From contig JAVRCJ020000011.1 of NCBI GenBank assembly GCA_034530875.2, forward strand, positions 153,055 to 217,054: 64,000 nt of DNA, in the 5' to 3' direction. Source of the DNA: Nostoc sp. DedSLP01 (GTDB lineage: Bacteria; Cyanobacteriota; Cyanobacteriia; Cyanobacteriales; Nostocaceae). The notes beneath the pieces were generated by a model that saw only the letters and a program-made list of their open reading frames with translations, did no database searches and had not been told where the DNA came from. Shown here piece by piece: positions 3,537-15,577 of the stretch. Each line of letters opens with the position of its first letter. Position 1 is the stretch's first letter. Both the position numbers and the translations under genes were made by a program.

Positions 3537-3605
3537 AAACTAGCTTTCCCTGTCTGTCCATCAACTGTCGCCTGATAGTAACACGAGTAAAAATACCAGT
3601 CAAAC

Positions 3606-3630
3606 ATACCCGACAAATTTTGTCGGGTAT
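3606..3630. promoter_or_regulatory. 25-bp palindromic operator, Rrf2/IscR-type
   Basis: ATACCCGACAAA-T-TTTGTCGGGTAT perfect inverted repeat 70 bp upstream of thrC-moaD. Confidence 0.65.
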
Positions 3631-4454
3631 TTTGGGTAGTCACAGTAATAATTTTTGTAACATTCGGTTACTAATAAATTTTTGCATTTAGTATTTACAC
3701 TTAGTAATTTTTGGTTATAAAAAAATCGCAGCTTGAGTTATTCCGTCTTAATACTGTTGGTAGTTAGAATTAAATTGCATTTTGGGTACGATCGATTTGC
3801 ATATATCTAAAAGATCGCCAGTTTTTAGCGATCTAAATCGCTTTTTGAATTTATTCCACGACTCGCTCGAGTAAAGTGAATATATAACAGTAAAGAATCA
3901 AAAGTATTTCCAGATATAGATTTTAGTATTTTTGCTCTGGGATTGAAGATTCAAGTTGCTATTGATATTCCAACAATGAATTTGAATTTCAATTTTTATA
4001 CACTCATTCACTGCTAGAGAAGTTACTTATTTATACGGTGGACTTTTCTTGCAGCAAAAGTTACATTTCTACTTGCATAAACAATTCAGCAGTACGCAAC
4101 AGTAAGTTTCCCATAGTTGTGGTTACCAGCCTTGATTATCAACGGCGATCGCAAATTTAGATCGGCGAATTATTTGCAGGTATTGCATGAATATATATTC
4201 GTGAGGAGTGTCAATAACTGATAGCAGATTTCAAGAAGAGAGAAAATATACAAATGAGGTTTCAAAGCTTGGCTTTAAACGTGCTTTACTACTGAATCTG
4301 ATTCGCAGAATTCAGTAATTTTGGTTTAACTCCTCAAATCTGCATTCTCAAAAAATTAACGTTTTAGGCAAATATCATCGGTAATTCTTAAAAAATTGCC
4401 GAACTTTATCCTCTTTAAAATTCAGGACACAAGTTCAGCAAACAAACAACACCT

Positions 4455-6989
4455 ATGGTAAAACAAAATAAATTTGTCAACAGGCAGCATCACCGCTATC
4501 AATCCTTAATAGCAACAGCATTATTAACTGGTAGCTTTTTCCAATTTGTTGCACCTGTATTAGCTGACGGAACTACTGCGGGTACGTCTATCAGTAATAC
4601 AGCCACAGCAACCTACGAAGATCCCAACAGTCCAGGGACGACAATCAACGCCACTTCCAACACTGTGGTTGTCACCGTTGCAGAAGTTGCTGGTATCACC
4701 GTCAGTGCATCTGGTGTCACAGATACCACTGCTAGTCCTAGCAATACAACAGTCCAAGCTGGCGATTTACTTATCTACACCTACACCTTGACCAACGTAG
4801 GTAACGACCCAACCAAATTCCACATTCCTAACCAAGCTACAACAACCGGGCCAGGTACAGTTTCTGGTACATTACCAAATGGTGGTACAGCTAATAGCTT
4901 GCAATATAGTATCGACGGCGGTCAAAATTGGATAAACGTTCCCCAAGGCGGCATAGATACACCATCAGTTCCAGTTGGTGGCACTGTATTGGTGCGCGTA
5001 CCAATTACTGTACAACCTGGTGCCCAAACCAATGATGTCATTACTGTTACCCTTGGTAATACTCCTGGTGACGCTCAAAACCAACTGCGGAGTCCTGATG
5101 GTGGCGACGTATTTACTGTAGATAATCCTGATGGTAGTCCTGGTGAGGTACCTGGCGCACCAGTTAACGGTACTCGGGAAGCTAGCGCCACCCAGCAAAT
5201 TAAGGTTGGTTTAACGGTAAAGACCTACACGTTAGCCACCGTTCTCAAGATTCGCAGTGGTTATAACAATGCTGGCACGCCTGCAATTACAGACGATAAG
5301 CTGACTTACGATTTGAGTTTGCGAGTTGAGTCCAACGATCCCACAGGACAGGGAATCACACCAGCAGCTTTGACTGGCACCAATGTTCCTGGTCTTGCTG
5401 GTACTCATATTTTGGTTTCTGATGCCATTCCCGCAGGTACAGATTTGGCAGTAGCACCAACTCCGCCTCCTGGTTGGCAAACTGTTTATACCACTGACCC
5501 AGTTACAACTAATGCTAATGCAGCTACTTGGACTACAACACCACCATCAGTCTTGGCTTCAGTAACTCGCGTTGGTTTTATCAATAATCCAGCAACAATT
5601 ACTTCCATCGCTCCTGGTACGACGGTGACTGGCTTTTCGATTCAAGTCGCCGTTGAATTAAGTGCCACTTCACCTTTAACTATTGCTAATATTGCCCAAT
5701 TATTTGGTCAAACACCAAGCAGCAATCTACCAGTATACGACGAATCGGGCGACCAAAATCCTAGCAACTACAACGGGCCTCCAGGTAGTATGATACCTCC
5801 CGCTGGTACAGATAGCAACAGCGATGGTGTTCCCGATACTCTACCAACCGGCAGCGTTGATGATGGCTATATTAATACTCCAACAACTCCGGAAACTGGA
5901 ACTGACGCAGGCAATAACAATAGTGGTGATGGTTCGCAAGGAGGTGAGGCGAACGTCATCACACTGCAAACACCTGTAGCTTCAGCAATACTCAACGGCC
6001 CGCAAAATGCACCGGATGCAACTGGGCCGTCAGGTGGAACCAACGATGACTTCACGAATAAATCTTCTCTCGTTCCTCCTAATACTGCACCTGGTAGTAC
6101 GCTCGATCCTCAGTCAGTTGGCTTCACAAACACAGTTAAGAATACTGGTACTGAGTCAGGGGTTTTGAAGATAGAGCCAACGCTACCAGGAGTTGCAGGA
6201 GATTTACCGAATAATACGAAGATAACGATTACCTATAATAGCCAGTCTGCTGTTTATACTTACAATAATGGAGTATTTACAACACCTGGGGCACCAATTA
6301 CAATCCCTAACTTTGCTCCTAATGCAACTATCAACTATGGTGTAGAAGTTGATTTACCCGCAGGTACGCAGTTATCTACTGATATTAATAAAGGCTTCCC
6401 AGTACCCGTAACTGCTTCTATTGATAACTACACGACGGATAGTAACGGAGATGGAATCAAGGATACTGGGAACGATAATGCCTTTGATTCATCCAACATC
6501 ACCATCGATCGCGTCTACACTGGCTACCTGAAACTGTTGAAAATGTCACGAGTTCTACAAGGAACCGGGCCTGTAGTTCAAGGAAATGATGGCATCTTCA
6601 GTACTGACCCGAAAAAGCCTGCACCAGGAAACATTATTGAGTACCAAATTCAGTACAGCAATATTTCCGAGCCTCAATCTGGAACTGGTAACGTGATTTT
6701 GAATGCTAGCAAAGTTGTGATTATTGAAGATGGTACGCAAGGCTCCAACAACTGGGCAAAAGACAATGATGCCAGCGGTCAAATTGATACTAGCAACATT
6801 GTTGGTTCCGCCAAAGATTCTGGCAGTGCAACCATTCAATTCTTCAGCGGAAATCCAGCTACTAGCTCTGGTATCGACCAAACTGGAACTACGGTAAATA
6901 CTGATGTCACCAAGTATGTTGATACTGTAACTGGTATCATCGCGCCGGGTGTTCAAAGAACATTTACCTTCCAACGTAAGGTCAACTAA
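4455..6989 (+). CDS. Secreted T/G/P/N-rich multi-Ig (DUF11-like) surface protein, candidate major fibre subunit
   Basis: Sec signal ending APVLA|DG. N-terminal GTSISNTATATY, repeated GD/GNxxxYxxxxxN strands, DxNxDG acidic loops. Confidence 0.75.
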   Translation: MVKQNKFVNRQHHRYQSLIATALLTGSFFQFVAPVLADGTTAGTSISNTATATYEDPNSPGTTINATSNTVVVTVAEVAGITVSASGVTDTTASPSNTTVQAGDLLIYTYTLTNVGNDPTKFHIPNQATTTGPGTVSGTLPNGGTANSLQYSIDGGQNWINVPQGGIDTPSVPVGGTVLVRVPITVQPGAQTNDVITVTLGNTPGDAQNQLRSPDGGDVFTVDNPDGSPGEVPGAPVNGTREASATQQIKVGLTVKTYTLATVLKIRSGYNNAGTPAITDDKLTYDLSLRVESNDPTGQGITPAALTGTNVPGLAGTHILVSDAIPAGTDLAVAPTPPPGWQTVYTTDPVTTNANAATWTTTPPSVLASVTRVGFINNPATITSIAPGTTVTGFSIQVAVELSATSPLTIANIAQLFGQTPSSNLPVYDESGDQNPSNYNGPPGSMIPPAGTDSNSDGVPDTLPTGSVDDGYINTPTTPETGTDAGNNNSGDGSQGGEANVITLQTPVASAILNGPQNAPDATGPSGGTNDDFTNKSSLVPPNTAPGSTLDPQSVGFTNTVKNTGTESGVLKIEPTLPGVAGDLPNNTKITITYNSQSAVYTYNNGVFTTPGAPITIPNFAPNATINYGVEVDLPAGTQLSTDINKGFPVPVTASIDNYTTDSNGDGIKDTGNDNAFDSSNITIDRVYTGYLKLLKMSRVLQGTGPVVQGNDGIFSTDPKKPAPGNIIEYQIQYSNISEPQSGTGNVILNASKVVIIEDGTQGSNNWAKDNDASGQIDTSNIVGSAKDSGSATIQFFSGNPATSSGIDQTGTTVNTDVTKYVDTVTGIIAPGVQRTFTFQRKVN

Positions 6990-7159
6990 TTTGTTGGGAG
7001 TGAGGGAGACAAGAGGACAAGGTAAATAACTCTTAAGTGAGTACTCCCAATGCCTAAAACCAGTTGACTTCACTCCTACAAAGCTCAAGCCAAGTGATTA
7101 TTTATTAGCAAAAGCAGGGAAAAATAAGTCAATAATCAAAATTCTGGAAGTTATTTATT

Positions 7160-7723
7160 ATGAAGGGTGCTTATCTTAGAGGTTTCGGTGCGTTTGCACT
7201 AATAGCTACAGTTACATTTTTGGCTGAATTTCCCAGATTTACAAATATCTCGCATTCAGGAATTGCCTACGCTCAAAATACTAAAACTCAAGGGCAAATT
7301 CAATTGCGCTTAGAAGCCGAAAAGCTAGTCATAGCTCAAGATCGGCAGGGCAAACAAAGCCAGAAATGGGAACTTTTAAAAGGTCAAGCTGTAGTCCGAC
7401 CGGGAGATGTATTGAGGTATACTTTGAGTGGCGAAAATCAAAGCGATCGCCCAGTCAAAAATTTGATTCTCAATCAACCCATTCCCCGGGGGATGGTCTA
7501 CGTACTGAAATCTGCAAATATAACTAATAATGGAAAAATTACTTATAGCATTGATGGTGGGCGTAACTTCGTCGAAAACCCCACCGTTAAAGTTACTCTT
7601 TCTAACGGCAAAGTGGAAACTAAACCAGCGCCAGCCATTGCTTATACCCACATCCGCATACAGATTCCGTCAGTTGCAGCAAAGACGGCAGTCAAAGCGA
7701 CTTATCAAACGCAAGTGCGTTGA
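7160..7723 (+). CDS. Secreted single-domain DUF11-like (conserved repeat domain) protein
   Basis: Signal peptide (IAYA|Q). Motifs VRPGDVLRYTLSGEN, QPIPRGMVYV and YSIDGG. Confidence 0.8.
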   Translation: MKGAYLRGFGAFALIATVTFLAEFPRFTNISHSGIAYAQNTKTQGQIQLRLEAEKLVIAQDRQGKQSQKWELLKGQAVVRPGDVLRYTLSGENQSDRPVKNLILNQPIPRGMVYVLKSANITNNGKITYSIDGGRNFVENPTVKVTLSNGKVETKPAPAIAYTHIRIQIPSVAAKTAVKATYQTQVR

Positions 7724-7730
7724 TTGAAAG

Positions 7731-7866
7731 AAGAATTCAGGATTCAGAATTCAGAAGCAACAGCACTGGTAACAGTTATTCAGAGTTCATAACCTCGTTC
7801 CTGCTGCGTTATTTAACAGTTGTACATAATTCATTCTGAATTCTGAATTCTGACTCCTGAATTCTG
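7731..7866. repeat. Inverted heptamer arrays (ATTCAGA)n ... (TTCTGAA)n able to form a long hairpin
   Basis: gaattcaggattcagaattcagaa at ~7733-7756 is complementary to ttctgaattctgaattctgactcctgaattc at ~7834-7864. Confidence 0.8.
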
Positions 7867-7896
7867 TTTTTATAATTTTTTTATTAACAACAAGCT

Positions 7897-9459
7897 TTGC
7901 ATCCAGAGGTGATGTGTTCGGTGAGCCGTCCTCAAAAACAAAAGCGAATTAATTCTAGTAGTATCTGGCATCAAAAATTAACAGCAATTCTTTTGCTAGG
8001 TAGTTTTTTACATAGTACTTTATCTCTATCTGTAAGAGCGCAACAAAATAACAATCTAGTTGCATCTGTGCCAATTACAAATCAAGCTAATTACACTTAT
8101 ACAGACCCAGCCAGTAATTATCAATATCAGGGAAATTCTAGTCAGCTTGACGTTACCCCCGATCCATTAGTTGACCCATTAGGGCGGATTTTAGGTTGTG
8201 CTGGAACGCTGTTACCAGACTATACAGGATTTTCAGTAGGGGTATACGAACCTAATCCTAACGACCCCACGGGTACAGAATTAGGCAGTTTAGTTGCTTT
8301 AACTAGAACAGAGTTACCTGATATTCCTAATAACAATGTGCCTGGTGGAAAATCGCCAAATATTGAAAATAGTAATCCATATTTCATTACAAATAACCCT
8401 GCGGGCGTTTATAACTTTTTACTAGATCCAAACAAAGGGCAAACCGATCCAGGTAGAATCTACATTTTTGTAGTTAATCCACCGCCGAATTCTATCTATA
8501 CACAACGGCGAGTCAAGATTGAAATCCTTAATAGCGTTGGTTCGCAAGGTAACGATGTCGTGCGGTATCTTGCTACTTCTTTAGATGGTCAACCAATAAG
8601 TCTTACAGGTGAGACTAGGGTAGAACAAACAGTTGTTTTAGTTCCCAATGCAGAAGTAGTGGGGCTGGATTTATTAGCCTTTGAATTCACGACAAATTTG
8701 TGTCAAGCCAATCAATTGCAGATTATCAAAACAGGCGATCGCGCGACTGCTGAACCTGGAGATACGGTTATCTACCGCCTATCGGTAAAAAATCTCTCTG
8801 ATGCTGGTTTGAACAATGTAGTTATTACTGACAACCTACCTTTAGGATTCCAGTTCTTGCCGAAATCTGTGCGGGGAGAGATGGATGGCGCAGCGGTTGC
8901 GATCGTATCAGAACGGAATGGCAACACGGTGATATTCCGAACAAGTATGGCGGTTCCCGTAGGGAAAGTCTTGAATATTGCCTACGCTGCTCAATTAACG
9001 GGCGATGCTTTGCGTGGTACTGGCCGCAACAGTGCGATCGCTACTGCCCAACGAAGCGATAACGGTTTTAGCACTAAGGATGGCCCGGCAACTCACCAAC
9101 TGAAAATTCGCCCTGGAATCGTTTCTGATTGTGGCACGATTATCGGCCGGGTGTTTGTCGATAAAAACTTTGATGGCGAACAACAGCGCGGCGAGCCTGG
9201 AATACCCAATGCAGTGGTTTTTCTAGAAGATGGTAACCGCATCACTACAGATCCCAATGGTTTGTTCTCCTTAGCTAACGTTTTACCTGGGTATCACACA
9301 GGCGTACTCGACCTCAGCAGTGTAGCTGGTTATGCGTTAGCTCCCAATAAAAAATTCCGCGAACGCAATAGCCAATCTCGCCTAGTGCATTTAGAACCGG
9401 GTGGCTTAGTACGCATGAACTTTGGTGTCACCCCATTTCAGGAGCCAGTCAAGAAATGA
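7897..9459 (+). CDS. Secreted DUF11 + SdrD-B/CnaB-like domain protein (start codon uncertain)
   Basis: Signal (SVRA|Q). Complete DUF11 (LQIIKT..EPGDTVIYRLSVKN..VITDNLP..GRNSA). C-terminal IIGRVFVDKNFDGEQ..GEPGIP..TDPNGLFS. Confidence 0.85.
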   Translation: MHPEVMCSVSRPQKQKRINSSSIWHQKLTAILLLGSFLHSTLSLSVRAQQNNNLVASVPITNQANYTYTDPASNYQYQGNSSQLDVTPDPLVDPLGRILGCAGTLLPDYTGFSVGVYEPNPNDPTGTELGSLVALTRTELPDIPNNNVPGGKSPNIENSNPYFITNNPAGVYNFLLDPNKGQTDPGRIYIFVVNPPPNSIYTQRRVKIEILNSVGSQGNDVVRYLATSLDGQPISLTGETRVEQTVVLVPNAEVVGLDLLAFEFTTNLCQANQLQIIKTGDRATAEPGDTVIYRLSVKNLSDAGLNNVVITDNLPLGFQFLPKSVRGEMDGAAVAIVSERNGNTVIFRTSMAVPVGKVLNIAYAAQLTGDALRGTGRNSAIATAQRSDNGFSTKDGPATHQLKIRPGIVSDCGTIIGRVFVDKNFDGEQQRGEPGIPNAVVFLEDGNRITTDPNGLFSLANVLPGYHTGVLDLSSVAGYALAPNKKFRERNSQSRLVHLEPGGLVRMNFGVTPFQEPVKK

Positions 9460-12400
9460 AACCTAGATTGCACTGTGCGACTATTTTCAACTTGAGGTCG
9501 ATGGGGCTAATGCCGATAGCTCTCAGCCTCGTTTTGTATCCGGCCATAGTTAAAGCAGAAGTCAGCCATGAAAAATTGCTTTTACAGGCAGAGAAGGGTG
9601 TCGAAGATCGAGCTGTTGAAAATAAAGTGGTTGAAAAAACTATGGGTGTGAATTCTGGGGTTGGTGATGCAGGAGATCGAAAGTTCGTGCAAATAAGCAA
9701 AGGCGCAAAGATTAAGAGAAGAATTCAGCAACGGGTAAATTCTTATCGTTTGTTGGGAAGTTCTAGACAAGAGGTTAAACCTGTTGAATTGCGGCCATTT
9801 TCTTTAGCATCAGCTAGCGTTAGTTCAATTTCAGATGTCCAGGCAATACAACCATTTCAACCAGCAAGTTCTGTGGAATTGCCTAAAGGGTTACGGAAAA
9901 TTGCAGGAATTGAGGATAAGAAAGACCAATCTCCAAAGGAAATACAACCATTTCAACCAGCAAGTTCTGTAGGTTTGCCCAAAGGGTTACGCAAAATTGC
10001 TAATGGGGACGTGGTGACAACGGGACAAGGGGAGGCTAAGGCAGAGGGACAAGGAGACAAGGAGACAACAGGACAAGAGGAGGCTAAGGCAGAGGGACAA
10101 GGAGACAAGGGGACAACAGGACAAGGGGAGGCTAAGGCAGAGGGACAAGGAGACAAGGAGACAACAGGACAAGGGGAGGCTAAAGCACAAGGACAAGGTT
10201 TGAATGAGAATATGCCTGTGTCTTCACCTCCAGGGATTTCTACAGGAATCAAAATTCTGACTCCGACGGCTGACAGTGTTGTAGATGTACAAGCTACTAC
10301 GGTGATTGTGCAGTTTCCTGCTGGTACTCAGGTGGAATTGCGAGTAAATGGGGTTTTGGTAGATGCTTCTTTGGTGGGGCGGACGGAAAGCGATGCGAGT
10401 ACTAACTTAGTAACGCAGACATGGTATGGTGTTTCGTTACAAGAAGGCCAAAATACTATCTCAGCAAATGTTGTTGGCGGCAAGGAACCGCCTGTAACAG
10501 TGCAGGTGGCAGTTCGAGGAGCGCCGCAGCAACTAACTTTAGAAACTGTTGAGTCTCGTATCCCGGCTGATGGACGTTCTACGGCTACAATCCAGGGTCA
10601 ACTGCTCGATGCCAGTGGTAATCGCTCTAATTATGATGCTGTTGTGACTTTGATACCTACTGCTGGGGACTTCGTGGAGAAAGATTTTCAACCCGATGAA
10701 CCTGGATTTCAAGTGCAGGCGAAAGGAGGACAATTTAGAGCAACATTGCGATCGCAATTGAAGGCGGAAACTGTCACAATCCGCGCCATCACTAATAATT
10801 TAGAAGCCTATACCCAACTGCAATTTGAAACGGCCTTACGTCCGAGTTTGCTGACTGGGGTCATAGATTTACGTTTGGGTGCAAGAGGTACAAATTATTA
10901 TGGCAGTTTCCGCGATTTCATTCCTCCTGACAAAGACAATAGAACGCAATTAGATTTCCATTCAGCGATATTTGCCACCGGTACGATTGGAGAGTGGTTG
11001 TTTACGGGAGCATATAACAGTTCTCGGAATCTGAATGAAGATTGTAACTGCGATAATCGCTTGTTTAGAACTTATCAATTTAGCGAGCAAAACTATCCTG
11101 TTTACGGTGATAGCTCGAAAGTTGATGCGGTCGCTCCTTCCATTGACAGCGTATTTCTGCGTTTTGAGCGTTCAACCGGTATAGCTGGATCTGCTCCTGA
11201 TTTTGCTATGTGGGGTGACTATAACACAGAAGAATTTGCGCGGCGATCGCAGCAATTTACTTCTATAACTCGTCAGCTCCACGGTTTTAAAGCTAATTAC
11301 AATTTAGGAAATTTACAAATTACAGGTTTTTACGGCAATAACTTAGAAGGATTCCAACGAGACACGATTGCTCCCGATGGTACTAGTGGTTATTATTTCC
11401 TTTCTCGCAGGCTCCTACAACCAGGTAGTGAAAATGTTTTTATCGAGTTAGAAGAACTCAATCGTCCTGGGACTGTATTGGAACGCAAACAGCTAAACCG
11501 AGGCCCAGACTACGAAATTGACTACGATCGCGGTACTTTATTATTCCGCGAACCGATTCTTCGTACCGATATTGATGAAAACGGACAAGTCTTGGTACGT
11601 CGGATTGTTGTTAGCTATCAATACGAAAGTGAAGACTCTGATAGCAATATCTTTGCCGGTCGTTTGCAATATAATCTTTCCCGCGAACTGAATCGGGAAA
11701 GTTGGATTGGAGCAACTTACGTCCAAGAAAATCAAGGTGCGCGTGATTTTCAACTCTACGGCGCGGACGCACTGATAGCTTTGGGTGACAAGGGTAAGCT
11801 AATCGCAGAATACGCTCATTCGAGTAATGATTCTGATGTTCTAGGAAGGGTTAGGGGTGATGCGTATCGCTTGGAAGCTGAGGGACAAATTACTAATGGC
11901 ATTCAAGGACGTGCTTATTATCGGTTTGCCGATACAGGTTTTGCTAACAATGCCACGATCAGCTTTGTACCAGGGCAAACTCGTTATGGGGCGCAGGTTA
12001 TAGCTAAACTAAGTTCAACTACCACTGCCAGAGTCCAATACGATCACGAAGACAATTTTGGTATTGCTCCCCAACCGCTAGATACTTTTGAAGAATTATT
12101 TGCACCCCGTAATGATGCCATACCAGGAAGTAAGGTTGATAATTCTCTGACGACAATTAGTGCTGGGATTCAACAACGTTTAGGTAGTGCCATCTTCGAT
12201 CTAGATTGGATTCATAGGGATCGCCAAGACCGTATCTCACCCAACGCCTTGAGTGGTAATTCCGATCAATTGCGATCGCGTTTTACAGTTCCTATCGCTA
12301 AAAACTTGACTTTCCAAGCCCAAAACGAACTTAGTCTATCTTCCCAAAAAGATAGTGTTTATCCAGACCGTACTATCTTCGGGTTAAATTGGGCAGCAAT

Positions 12401-13562
12401 TCCTGGCATCAATATTAGTCTGGCGCAACAGTTTTACAGTAGCGGTCAATTTTCTGGTAACTCCATCACCAGCTTGAGTGTCAACGGCGAACACAAACTC
12501 GGAAGGGATACCACAATAACAGGTCGTTACTCAATTTTGGGTGGTGCCAATGAACTGACTACACAAGGGGCAATTGGTCTAAATAACCGTTGGACTATTG
12601 CTCGTGGATTGCGGTTGAATTTAGCTTACGAACACGTATTTGGTAACTTCTTCGGACGCACAGCAGCAGGTCAACAATATCCCCAACCTTACGCCTTCGG
12701 TCAAGCTGCATCATCAATTGGCTTTGATGGTGGCGATAGTTACAGTGTTGGTTTGGAATACAGCGATAACCCGGAATTTCAAGCCAGCGCCCGCTACGAA
12801 CATCGCTCCTCTTCTGGTGGTACTAATACAGTAATTACCGCAGGTGCAGTGGGTAAAATTTCTCCATCGCTCACGGCTCTAGTACGTTATCAACAAGCAA
12901 ACTCTTCCAATCAAAGACTTTCAGGATTGGCAGATACCGCTAATTTGAAAGTGGGTTTAGCTTACCGCGACCCCCACAGTGATAAATTTAATGCTTTGTT
13001 GCGTTATGAATATCGCCAAAATCCAGCGATTATTCCTGAGACTATTTTGTTAGGTAGCGGTACGGGTTCCCAAGACCATACTTTTGCTTTAGAAGCTATT
13101 TACGCCCCTAACTGGCAATGGGAATTCTACGGTAAGTATGCTTTGCGTAACAGTACTTCTTATTTGGCTAACGATTTAGTAGGTACGAGTACGGTGAATT
13201 TAGGACAATTACGGGCTACTTATCGTTTGGGATATAGCTGGGATTTAGTTGGTGAGGCTCGTTGGATTGGTCAATCTAGTTACAGTGAGACAGGCTTTGT
13301 TCTAGAAACAGGTTACTACCTGACTCCTAATTTGCGGCTTTCTGCTGGATATGTCTTCGGTAAAGTTGATGACAGGGATTTTTCCGGGACGCGATCGGCA
13401 GGAGGCCCATACTTGGGACTAACTGTCAAGCTAGATGACTTGTTTGATGGTTTTGGACAGCAAAAACCGGTGCCACGTCAGCAACAGAAGCCAAATACAA
13501 CAGAGGCGCAGATGAAAACAGAGACGCATCAAGCTGCGTCTCTAGATGGGGCAAATTTGTAG
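9456..13562 (+). CDS. Large outer-membrane beta-barrel protein with periplasmic Ig-like domains
   Basis: 4-bp overlap with the upstream gene, signal peptide, Big-1-like IPADGRST segment, and a long amphipathic aromatic/Gly beta-strand C-terminal region ending GPYLGLTVKL. Confidence 0.75.
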   Translation: MKPRLHCATIFNLRSMGLMPIALSLVLYPAIVKAEVSHEKLLLQAEKGVEDRAVENKVVEKTMGVNSGVGDAGDRKFVQISKGAKIKRRIQQRVNSYRLLGSSRQEVKPVELRPFSLASASVSSISDVQAIQPFQPASSVELPKGLRKIAGIEDKKDQSPKEIQPFQPASSVGLPKGLRKIANGDVVTTGQGEAKAEGQGDKETTGQEEAKAEGQGDKGTTGQGEAKAEGQGDKETTGQGEAKAQGQGLNENMPVSSPPGISTGIKILTPTADSVVDVQATTVIVQFPAGTQVELRVNGVLVDASLVGRTESDASTNLVTQTWYGVSLQEGQNTISANVVGGKEPPVTVQVAVRGAPQQLTLETVESRIPADGRSTATIQGQLLDASGNRSNYDAVVTLIPTAGDFVEKDFQPDEPGFQVQAKGGQFRATLRSQLKAETVTIRAITNNLEAYTQLQFETALRPSLLTGVIDLRLGARGTNYYGSFRDFIPPDKDNRTQLDFHSAIFATGTIGEWLFTGAYNSSRNLNEDCNCDNRLFRTYQFSEQNYPVYGDSSKVDAVAPSIDSVFLRFERSTGIAGSAPDFAMWGDYNTEEFARRSQQFTSITRQLHGFKANYNLGNLQITGFYGNNLEGFQRDTIAPDGTSGYYFLSRRLLQPGSENVFIELEELNRPGTVLERKQLNRGPDYEIDYDRGTLLFREPILRTDIDENGQVLVRRIVVSYQYESEDSDSNIFAGRLQYNLSRELNRESWIGATYVQENQGARDFQLYGADALIALGDKGKLIAEYAHSSNDSDVLGRVRGDAYRLEAEGQITNGIQGRAYYRFADTGFANNATISFVPGQTRYGAQVIAKLSSTTTARVQYDHEDNFGIAPQPLDTFEELFAPRNDAIPGSKVDNSLTTISAGIQQRLGSAIFDLDWIHRDRQDRISPNALSGNSDQLRSRFTVPIAKNLTFQAQNELSLSSQKDSVYPDRTIFGLNWAAIPGINISLAQQFYSSGQFSGNSITSLSVNGEHKLGRDTTITGRYSILGGANELTTQGAIGLNNRWTIARGLRLNLAYEHVFGNFFGRTAAGQQYPQPYAFGQAASSIGFDGGDSYSVGLEYSDNPEFQASARYEHRSSSGGTNTVITAGAVGKISPSLTALVRYQQANSSNQRLSGLADTANLKVGLAYRDPHSDKFNALLRYEYRQNPAIIPETILLGSGTGSQDHTFALEAIYAPNWQWEFYGKYALRNSTSYLANDLVGTSTVNLGQLRATYRLGYSWDLVGEARWIGQSSYSETGFVLETGYYLTPNLRLSAGYVFGKVDDRDFSGTRSAGGPYLGLTVKLDDLFDGFGQQKPVPRQQQKPNTTEAQMKTETHQAASLDGANL
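9846..10200 (+). repeat. In-frame coding repeats: 20-aa duplication plus ~4 x 48-nt units
   Basis: IQPFQPASSVxLPKGLRKIA at 9846 and 9942; TTGQGEAKAEGQGDKE x4 (last copy partial) from ~10017. Confidence 0.9.
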
Positions 13563-13570
13563 TTGTAATT

Positions 13571-14158
13571 ATGACTAAACCCAAATTTCAGGGCAAATAC
13601 CGAGTAGGATCTACTAGGTTGCCAACTCGTAATTACGCCGCTAATGGGTGGTATTTCATCACAATTTGCACAAGCGATCGCACTCATTTCTTAGGAAGTG
13701 TAATTACAGGAAATGTACAATTATCAAAAATTGGAGAAATAGCCCAACAATTCTGGGCAGAAATTCCAAATCATTTTGCCTACACCTATACAGATGCTTA
13801 TGTCGTCATGCCCAATCACGTACATGGGATTATTGCGATCGACCGTCCCCAAAATGTAGAGACGTTGCATTGCAACGTCTCTACACAACGTGATACCCCA
13901 TGCAACATTGCACAAGAACAATTCATGTCTGACATATCTCCTAAAGCGGGTTCATTGGGAGCGATAGTGCGTTCGTACAAATCTGCTGTGACCCGTTGGT
14001 GTGGGAAAAACGGTTTTGAAAACTTTGCTTGGCAAGAGCGATTTTACGAACACATCATTCGTGCTGATGGTTCTTTAGATCGAATTCGAGAATATATCAT
14101 TAATAATCCTACTAAATGGGAGAATGACAAAAACAATCCTATAAATTTATGGATGTGA
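13571..14158 (+). mobile_element. REP-associated tyrosine transposase (RAYT/TnpA-REP, HUH Y1 family)
   Basis: YFITICT, VVMPNHVHGII (HUH), WQERFYEHIIR and catalytic-region EYIINNP motifs; GTAG-type palindromes adjacent. Confidence 0.88.
13855..13885. repeat. REP palindrome inside the RAYT gene
   Basis: TGTAGAGACGTTGCA-T-TGCAACGTCTCTACA, perfect 31-bp palindrome. Confidence 0.9.
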
Positions 14159-14174
14159 TGTTTATACCCCTAAT

Positions 14175-14205
14175 TATAGAGACGTTGCATTGCAACGTCT
14201 CTACA
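14175..14205. repeat. REP palindrome downstream of RAYT
   Basis: Copy of 13855-13885 with one substitution. Confidence 0.9.
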
Positions 14206-14212
14206 AATCGTG

Positions 14213-15577
14213 TTAGACAGACAAGGGTTGTCTGGTTTCAACTGGTTCGCCAGTCAAGCTAAAAGCGCGAACTTCGGTAATTTTTACCTTTACTAATTGC
14301 CCTTTCAATTCTTTGATGTCGCCAGTAAAGAAGGTTAAACGATTACCGCCTGTGCGTCCCATGACTTGAGTTTTATCTTTCGGGTTTTGGTCTTCGACTA
14401 GAACTTCTTCAATACGTCCGAAGTAACGTTGCGATCGCTCGCTTGCTTTGATGGCTACTAGATGGTTCAATCTTTGTAGGCGATCGCTTTTAACTTCTTC
14501 ACTCAGTTGATTGTCCCACAAAGCGGCTGGCGTTCCTGGGCGTGGCGAATATGCGGCTGTATTCAACATATCAAAGCCGATATCTTCCACGAGTTTTAAG
14601 GTATTTTCAAACTGTTGTTCTGTTTCCCCAGGAAATCCCACAATTGCATCGGCACTAATTGACGCATCTGGCATATATTGCCGAATGGTATCGATGATTC
14701 GGCGATATTTTTCATGAGTATAACCCCGCGACATCGCCTTTAAAACTTCATTATCCCCAGACTGAAAGGGAATGTGGAAGTGTTCGCAAACTTTGGGCAA
14801 TTCAGCACAAGCCCGAATTAGTCTTTCAGTAAAATAGCGTGGATGGCTTGTAGCAAATCTTATTCTCTCAATTCCTGGCACATCATGGACGTAATATAGT
14901 AAATCTGTGAAGTTGTGCAGATGTCGTCCTTCTGGCGTGCTTCCTGGCAAATCTCTGCCGTAAGCGTCAATATTTTGTCCGAGTAAGGTAATTTCCTTGT
15001 AACCTTGTCGTCCTAATTCGGCCATTTCTTTCCGAATAGCTTCTGGCGTGCGAGATTGTTCGATACCGCGGACGTTAGGGACTACACAGTAAGTGCAGCG
15101 TTCGTTACAGCCGTAAATCACATTCACCCAAGCAGTGACTTTACTATCTCGTCGCGGCTGGGTGATATCTTCGATAATGTGAACCGGCTCAGTTGCCACA
15201 ACTTGGTTACCTTCAAACACTGATTCCAATAAATCTTTGAGGCGGTTGGCGTGTTGCGGCCCCATTACCAAGTCTAATTCTGGCACCCGCCGCAACAGCG
15301 CTTCGCCTTCTTGTTGGGCAACGCAACCAGCAACAATCAAAGTTAAATCGGGCTGTTCGTGCTTGCGCTTTGCCTGCCTGCCAAGGTAGGAGTATACTTT
15401 TTGCTCGGCATTATCTCGAATTGTGCAGGTATTGTAGAGAATCACATCTGCATTGTTTGGATCTTCCGACCACTCAAAGCCCATGTCTTCCAAAACGCCA
15501 GCCATGCGTTCTGAGTCAGCTTTATTCATCTGACAACCGAAAGTAGTGATGTGATAGTGGCGTTTAGAACTGGTCAT
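14213..15577 (-). CDS. miaB: tRNA-2-methylthio-N6-dimethylallyladenosine synthase
   Basis: [12 protein letters not shown], radical-[12 protein letters not shown]-terminal TRAM domain. Confidence 0.97.

Follow-up and report, generated by a model that had tools for sequence, protein, structure and literature searches.

What might be built by four adjacent genes whose products all appear to be exported, when one product is a predicted outer-membrane barrel and another begins with the very strands that its own last domain lacks? The question is raised by positions 4455 to 13562 of the window, by which we mean the whole analysed stretch of 64,000 nucleotides (nt) from Nostoc sp. DedSLP01 (contig JAVRCJ020000011.1, positions 153,055 to 217,054 of the forward strand). 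Here genes A, B, C and D form four co-oriented open reading frames (ORFs) on the + strand, exactly where an earlier note, made from the letters alone, had placed them, and the closest named homologs of their products come from Nostoc. All four N-termini have basic residues and then a hydrophobic stretch (12-residue mean hydropathy 1.9-2.4), which agrees with the export signals claimed in that note, the calls being those of a hydropathy heuristic and not of SignalP; past residue 60, no strongly hydrophobic 19-residue stretch occurs in A-D (maximum 1.65). We favour, with a probability of about 0.6, the reading that the four genes together make a surface pilus different in kind from the chaperone-usher pili. 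Its parts, with lengths in amino acids (aa) and model confidence as predicted local distance difference test (pLDDT) scores, are the following.

4455..6989, + strand: gene A, 844 aa, predicted shaft subunit; signal-peptide-like residues 1-38, donor hairpin 42-78, three immunoglobulin (Ig)-like domains and a truncated DUF11 acceptor domain, 692-844
4578..4688, + strand: donor hairpin of A (residues 42-78, with Asn48), the two strands absent from acceptor domains; pLDDT 85-93
5220..5966, + strand: domain 2 of A (DUF7925), CnaA/CLIPPER-like, with a candidate internal triad K265, D323 and N412
6528..6986, + strand: acceptor domain of A, ending ahead of the Asn strand, with K696 and E758
7160..7723, + strand: gene B, 187 aa; a single acceptor domain without the catalytic acid (Q106, P107)
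7897..9459, + strand: gene C, 520 aa from a TTG start; predicted base adaptor with no acceptor
9456..13562, + strand: gene D, 1368 aa; signal-peptide-like residues 1-34, a variable linker, two invasin-like Ig domains (residues about 265-460) and the barrel
10848..13436, + strand: predicted outer-membrane barrel of D (residues 465-1327), 38 strands in the model
11340..11642, + strand: conserved beta insert of roughly 100 aa in the barrel, in the loop after strand 7

The evidence that carries this reading lies in the ends of the proteins. A, B and an unlinked gene of the same genome, E, end in a DUF11/CLIPPER domain that lacks its last two strands, and A and C start with those strands. In the CLIPPER crystal structure a Lys-Asp-Asn triad has been shown to form a Lys-Asn isopeptide bond, according to the accessible part of the source (PMC12617251; PDB 9IFR). 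A DUF11 profile grown from the complete repeats in barrel loci found 670 domains, of which 495 were complete; these carry the Lys in 315 of the 346 that cover its position, the Asp in 372 of 489 and the Asn in 360 of 495. Many neighbours of D terminate just ahead of the Asn strand, and the 136 truncated terminal domains of this sort fall into 83 in long proteins and 53 in proteins of up to 260 aa. All 83 of the former have a Lys in the column of K696 and an acid in that of E758 (68 Asp, 15 Glu), the acid column having been chosen as the most acidic one of the long set and coinciding with E758; the latter retain the Lys in 8 and the acid in 11 of 53 cases. A profile of the first 45 mature residues of A, for its part, detects 91 hairpins at N-termini, and the Asn is kept in 89 of them. 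Among 64 homologs of A, Asn48 occurs in 63, and K696 and E758 each in all 64. The last domain of A is thus of DUF11 type with conserved Lys and Asp/Glu, its Asn sitting on the separate hairpin.

The distribution of these ends over whole proteins follows the same logic. Complete ORFs with both donor and acceptor number 45; a further 31 long and 50 short ones have the acceptor only; the donor alone is found in 27 barrels and 17 other proteins; and 68 complete barrel ORFs have neither. Since classes with both ends, with the acceptor only and with the donor on a barrel all occur, and no barrel has an acceptor, the architectures sort as chain assembly requires, even if the thresholds missed some A-type acceptors and donors and so somewhat inflated the single-ended classes. 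Natural fusions add to this. One genome without a barrel match (G023) encodes a protein of 2,709 aa that contains residues 510-844 of A (53% identity), with a copy of the N-terminal hairpin of A directly behind; its candidacy as a genome having A without D was rejected, since the module is a self-completed fusion. In a search of longer proteins, five, including this one, were found to hold the same module internally, and in all five the start of the hairpin lies no more than about 10 residues behind it, as expected if the domain needs those strands; two of the five bear a sorting domain of the type IX secretion system (T9SS) and two bear RTX repeats. The 2,709-aa protein at L160:5265-13391, in a genome without the barrel, is a mosaic of Calx-beta, self-completed A module, lamin-tail, DUF3616, cadherin and RTX repeats. 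What can be read directly in the sequences is the cut point, the division of Lys and acid from Asn between the two halves, the co-occurrence and the natural fusions. On these grounds hairpin complementation between subunits seems highly probable, and a covalent lock between them is predicted with rather less assurance, as the likelier outcome. Donor-hairpin joining is well supported in this way; the lock, the length of the fibre, export through D and the role of B are inferred.

The model of A (806 aa, pLDDT 88) consists of the hairpin and four beta domains, so that the earlier description of a multi-Ig protein stands and is refined by the loose N-terminal hairpin. The candidate internal triad of domain 2 is nearly invariant among homologs (K265 in 63 of 64, D323 and N412 in all 64), and the fold of this domain matches BcpA (Z 9.3, root-mean-square deviation (rmsd) 2.6 over 125 residues) and CLIPPER (9ifr; Z 8.1, rmsd 2.8 over 122). 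The best fold match to domain 1 is TTHA1873 (Z 9.5), for which the literature search found no functional paper. A fold search with the whole model returned generic matches only, with template modelling (TM) scores up to 0.16 by query; the fold neighbours in the ESM Atlas are unnamed clusters, and no solved relative of A or C was found by sequence. In C, a donor hairpin near residues 59-90 (Asn62) is followed by a complete DUF11 domain (273-379) and an SdrD_B-like tail at about 406-520, and twelve full-length relatives measure 491-551 aa.

What might control such joining is suggested by B. Among its 46 homologs, Asp or Glu occupies the acid position in two and Pro follows in 35, and Lys is found in none at the expected column; B shows a weak sequence match to the solved CLIPPER domain (E 0.018). 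It accompanies A, the sole subunit able to join to itself, and is missing from genomes with E, C and D only. We give about even odds to B being a reversible cap (or chaperone) for the hairpin of A that would prevent premature joining; the missing acid in most B proteins fits a reversible cap.

The opposite end of the chain would be provided by E. Behind D, relatives encode secreted proteins whose N-terminal parts are unrelated and which share a C-terminal domain, the E acceptor; a gene combining OmpA and a beta-helix sometimes comes in between. Such a beta-helix and OmpA protein, conserved in several cyanobacteria, lies directly after D at L016:15957-18146 and in L017, L018, L022, L023, L028 and L031. 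The E gene of the present genome is a lone one of 980 aa on another contig (G000:C5:264797-267736); its product starts with a signal-like sequence, includes a lamin-tail domain, keeps the Lys and Asp and has no donor, and it is the only other terminal acceptor among the 8,546 ORFs of this genome. In 151 genomes of the phylum (Cyanobacteriota), on which all co-occurrence counts rest, the E acceptor domain is matched in 17, every one barrel-positive, and in none of the 127 barrel-negative ones. In the variant loci L039 and L057, several small acceptors (190-240 aa) retain Lys and Asp and are possibly another subunit type.

As for D, its residues 260-1345 were modelled with pLDDT 83.5 and a predicted TM score of 0.75 as two invasin-like Ig domains and a barrel at model residues 206 to 1068. 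The count of 38 strands leaves out the insert after strand 7, another reading of which could give 40. Connections have a median of 11 residues after odd strands and 2 after even ones, a pattern that would place both barrel ends in the periplasm. No NCBIfam family matches D, and barrel and insert have no solved relative by sequence; no solved barrel fits D closely, the whole-model Foldseek matches being generic (TM up to 0.22). In three fusions that were checked, OmpA or SLH domains stand directly before the Ig pair of D (L045 and L035) or OmpA follows the barrel (L100). The linker at 10016-10198 contains 3.8 copies of a 48-nt unit, in a region that varies widely among relatives. We consider it fairly likely that D is the exit pore for the chain.

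Co-conservation of the genes, on which the proposal of a surface-fibre system in the earlier note depended, holds across the genomes searched. Within the phylum, D is matched in 24 of 151 genomes and full-length B (E below 1e-37) in 16, all of which have A and D; A is present in these 16 and in the fusion-bearing G023, and in 22 further genomes the B search gave partial DUF11-type matches only. Eight of the 24 barrel genomes are without A and B, two of them being fragmented assemblies 83-87% complete. Since the counted sequences include many close kin, the counts carry no statistic. Among 21 strong cyanobacterial barrel loci (L011-L031), the order A-B-C-D is found in 12, a short C before D in 8 and a C-D fusion in one; more distant loci have the order B-A-C-D in five cases, and four further loci are truncated or weak. 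A motif scan of bacterial genomes yielded at least 119 matches, all 119 fitting the D profile. The 80 flanked loci drawn from these span Cyanobacteria, alpha-, beta- and gamma-proteobacteria, Deltaproteobacteria, Acidobacteriota, Verrucomicrobiota, Gemmatimonadota, Nitrospira, Balneolaceae and others, and plasmid records extend the D homologs to Deinococcus and Thermus. The cluster lies on Deinococcus radiodurans MP1 (L162:4368-12682) and on an Acinetobacter plasmid (L164:5689-19202), some subunit genes being annotated in pieces in both, and the Psychrobacter loci L096 and L120 have two tandem A-type genes each, L120 also two B-type genes.

A further pattern concerns the tail of C. In the 68 of the 80 flanked loci that have a complete barrel start, this tail is fused to D or lies just upstream in 64 and was not seen in four. 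Where it is fused to D (32 loci), acceptor subunits are found in all and a donor in 27; where it is separate and upstream (32 loci), acceptor subunits are present in 8 and missing from 24. The C tail and D thus form the core, holding either a single polypeptide or a chain assembled from pieces. The two types favour anchoring and export by D, and also the short stalk discussed below.

These elements can be combined into a mechanism. All parts would cross the inner membrane by Sec, and B would hold the hairpin of A reversibly, blocking early joining. The tip adhesin E, having an acceptor only, would receive the hairpin of the first A, and each A would accept that of the next, giving a head-to-tail chain in which a self-forming bond from Lys696 to Asn48 probably locks neighbouring A subunits together. 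The hairpin of C would fill the last A and stop growth; the tail of C would dock on the periplasmic Ig domains of D, and the chain would pass through the barrel. The likely order is then tip E, A(n), base C and barrel D, with a presumed role in adhesion or biofilm. In this scheme the arrangement that the earlier note had proposed, a major subunit with a helper, an adaptor and a platform, holds; the donor-hairpin and divided-triad linkage and the tip subunit E had been overlooked there.

How long is the chain? The main rival accepts the same hairpin joints and sees in them a short modular stalk (E, one or few A, and C) on the barrel, a fibrillar adhesin made of interchangeable pieces. It draws on the 24 of 68 loci without an acceptor subunit, many with a giant multi-DUF11 chain that ends in the C tail, on the occurrence of E-C-D loci lacking A and B, and on the summed length of the pieces. 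Yet A bears both donor and acceptor, so that its sequence sets no limit of one copy, and all 16 genomes with B also have A, as expected if the self-joining of A needs control. We regard a long A polymer as reasonably likely to be preferred over the short stalk, which we hold to be rather unlikely. Much less probable is that A folds back into its own acceptor and that D exports separate secreted monomers: the model of the A monomer does show the hairpin with good confidence (pLDDT 85-93), but E and B are acceptors without a donor, and C and the C-D fusions donors without an acceptor, so that a partner in cis is absent from them.

Equally improbable is an assembly confined to the periplasm as a scaffold hung from D between outer membrane and wall. 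A periplasmic place is indeed predicted for the N-terminal arm of D, to which OmpA or SLH domains are joined in relatives; against this, the N-terminal parts of E proteins vary greatly beside a conserved acceptor, as in tip adhesins, and the A module occurs also in secreted proteins of T9SS and RTX type. Finally, the name TonB-dependent receptor on many records of D homologs would make the neighbours unrelated surface proteins, an explanation that we find scarcely credible. The barrel of a TonB receptor has 22 strands and an N-terminal plug; the model of D has 38, and two Ig domains instead of a plug precede its barrel; D matches no TonB-receptor family and is tightly linked to C. An ordinary plugged receptor, the outcome that the earlier note had named as fatal to its proposal, is therefore not what was modelled, and the label is wrong, judging from the 38 strands. 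No TonB receptor stands among the Foldseek matches listed, an absence that excludes nothing, and one comes at rank 49 in a wide fold search (Z 9.4, rmsd 13.2).

Several observations weigh against the pilus reading or soften its evidence. The analysis covered sequences and single-chain models, and the seeds of both profiles, for acceptor and for donor, came from the very proteins then counted. The donor of C matches weakly (E 0.004), just outside the set of 91 hairpins, as do those of close relatives; A carries Glu where most acceptors carry Asp; and a Lys stands two residues off the expected column in 17 of the 46 B homologs. The five fusions may descend from a single event, one duplication of A, and one of them continues into the first domain of A. 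E acceptors are kept in five of the eight barrel genomes without A and B, from which it follows that B is not required for the joining of E to C. The OmpA-beta-helix partner of D in several relatives has no match in this genome. Many of the 24 acceptor-less loci hold a single large multi-DUF11 chain with the C tail at its end, of about 2,000-3,000 aa where complete, several being cut by the locus edge, in which the donor was not detected. E, A and C taken once each sum to about 2,340 aa, the size of these giant single-chain adhesins, so that one A may suffice.

A and B are separated by 170 nt, and B and C by 173 nt; C and D overlap by 4 nt, in keeping with the translational coupling proposed earlier. 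Scans for promoters and terminators in the locus gave signals at chance level only, including the AT-rich gap of 918 nt upstream of A (3537-4454), where no promoter signal rises above chance. Two further elements complete the list.

7727..7870, no strand assigned: inverted arrays of 7-nt repeats between B and C, with 30-nt arms that are 90% complementary
13571..14158, + strand: REP-associated tyrosine transposase-like gene, occupying the site of the tip gene E in relatives and lying outside the system

The heptamer arrays (7727-7870) could fold as a long RNA hairpin that tunes the transcript levels of A and B against those of C and D. The region of the transposase-like gene (13571-14215) has two near-identical palindromes, at 13855-13885 within the gene and at 14165-14215 behind it, and in the genome G098 a REP-type transposase-like gene likewise lies between D and E.

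D homologs are spread over cyanobacteria, proteobacteria, Acidobacteriota, Verrucomicrobiota, Balneolota, Deinococcota and others. If the pilus reading is true, it would add a class of enzyme-free, covalently linked pili and an outer-membrane platform for export that exceeds every usher in size, and would give a function to barrels widely mislabelled as TonB receptors; natural peptide-tag/catcher pairs would also be indicated. The system would be a candidate for non-type-IV cyanobacterial filaments, and the structure of cyanobacterial thin pili is described as unknown in the accessible part of PMC12288463. Searches of the open text of PubMed Central and bioRxiv, a coverage outside which most subscription papers lie, found no description of the cluster or of a divided DUF11 domain. 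The boldest formulation, which we put forward tentatively and at somewhat less than even odds, is that of an undescribed and widespread Gram-negative pilus and secretion route, with SpyTag/SpyCatcher-like joining of folded, multi-domain subunits without sortase, a catalytically dead acceptor as its control and a 38-strand barrel as the passage for the subunits, which in other lineages displays one giant adhesin in their place.

How, then, does the cluster compare with known systems? Scans of Pfam and NCBIfam detect DUF7925 in A, a weak DUF11 in B, DUF11 and a sub-threshold SdrD_B in C, and sub-threshold Invasin_D3/Big_1 in D; no usher, PapD, sortase, pilin, TonB-receptor or type I secretion system (T1SS) family matches A-D at E up to 0.1, which bears out the lack of PapC/PapD, sortase, type IV pilin and T1SS motifs reported earlier. 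Three others were considered and set aside as different systems: CryoSeek TLP-1, with a single six-strand domain, the DUF11 hook of Litorilinea, with one chain of 6,596 aa, and F-ENA. With regard to curli, A-D gave no family match to CsgA-type repeats or to the CsgG pore, and A models as Ig-like domains. The sortase pili (BcpA, SpaD) resemble the predicted system in having isopeptide-linked multi-domain subunits of CnaA type, and domain 2 of A resembles BcpA; the link here would, in contrast, be autocatalytic and the host is a diderm with a barrel. The four genes hold no LPXTG anchor or sortase, the genome beyond them not having been searched for sortase, and the last element of A, B and E is a bare beta strand. 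SprA of the T9SS, a barrel of 36 strands, shares very large size with D and is among its top Foldseek matches (TM up to 0.18, rmsd above 35). However, D has no full-length TIGR04189 match, A-E are without a T9SS sorting domain, and the D barrel takes up about 860 aa; the insert of D matches TIGR04189 weakly in 3 of 45 members (best E 0.002), and none of eight distant D homologs matches SprA.

By strand count D resembles the predicted superfamily of 38- and 40-strand barrels (Solan 2021, PMC8346858), of which three 38-strand proteins are predicted in D. radiodurans (PMC9388160), so far as the accessible text of both goes; on its plasmid MP1, this organism has a D homolog with DUF11 neighbours. 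D may belong to these barrels, and the accessible parts of the two papers (PMC8346858, PMC9388160) give neither function nor partner genes for them. With the CLIPPER/DUF11 fibrillar adhesins (PMC12617251) the system shares the domain and its Lys-Asp-Asn triad, complete copies being present in C and, by fold, in domain 2 of A; there, however, the bonds are described as intramolecular in single chains, and the accessible text describes no divided domain or polymer.

With the chaperone-usher pili (Fim, Pap) the predicted system has its plan in common: a tip, a shaft, a terminator, a small helper and a barrel in the outer membrane. Their incomplete Ig-like subunits are completed by the N-terminal segment of a neighbour, and the sequences here predict such a joint, with two strands rather than one. 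There are also differences: a two-strand hairpin would enter a CnaA/DUF11 fold with a predicted covalent lock, in a four-domain subunit of 806 aa, and the helper B is an acceptor, one truncated DUF11 domain, rather than a two-domain chaperone of PapD type or a strand donor. An usher barrel has 24 strands against the 38 of D, which has no usher or PapD family match; PapC aligns to D at Z 11.4 (rmsd 16.4 over 366 residues), level with small porins. The cluster is real and conserved, and represents a probably undescribed surface-fibre system, chaperone-usher-like in its predicted working and yet not itself a chaperone-usher pilus.

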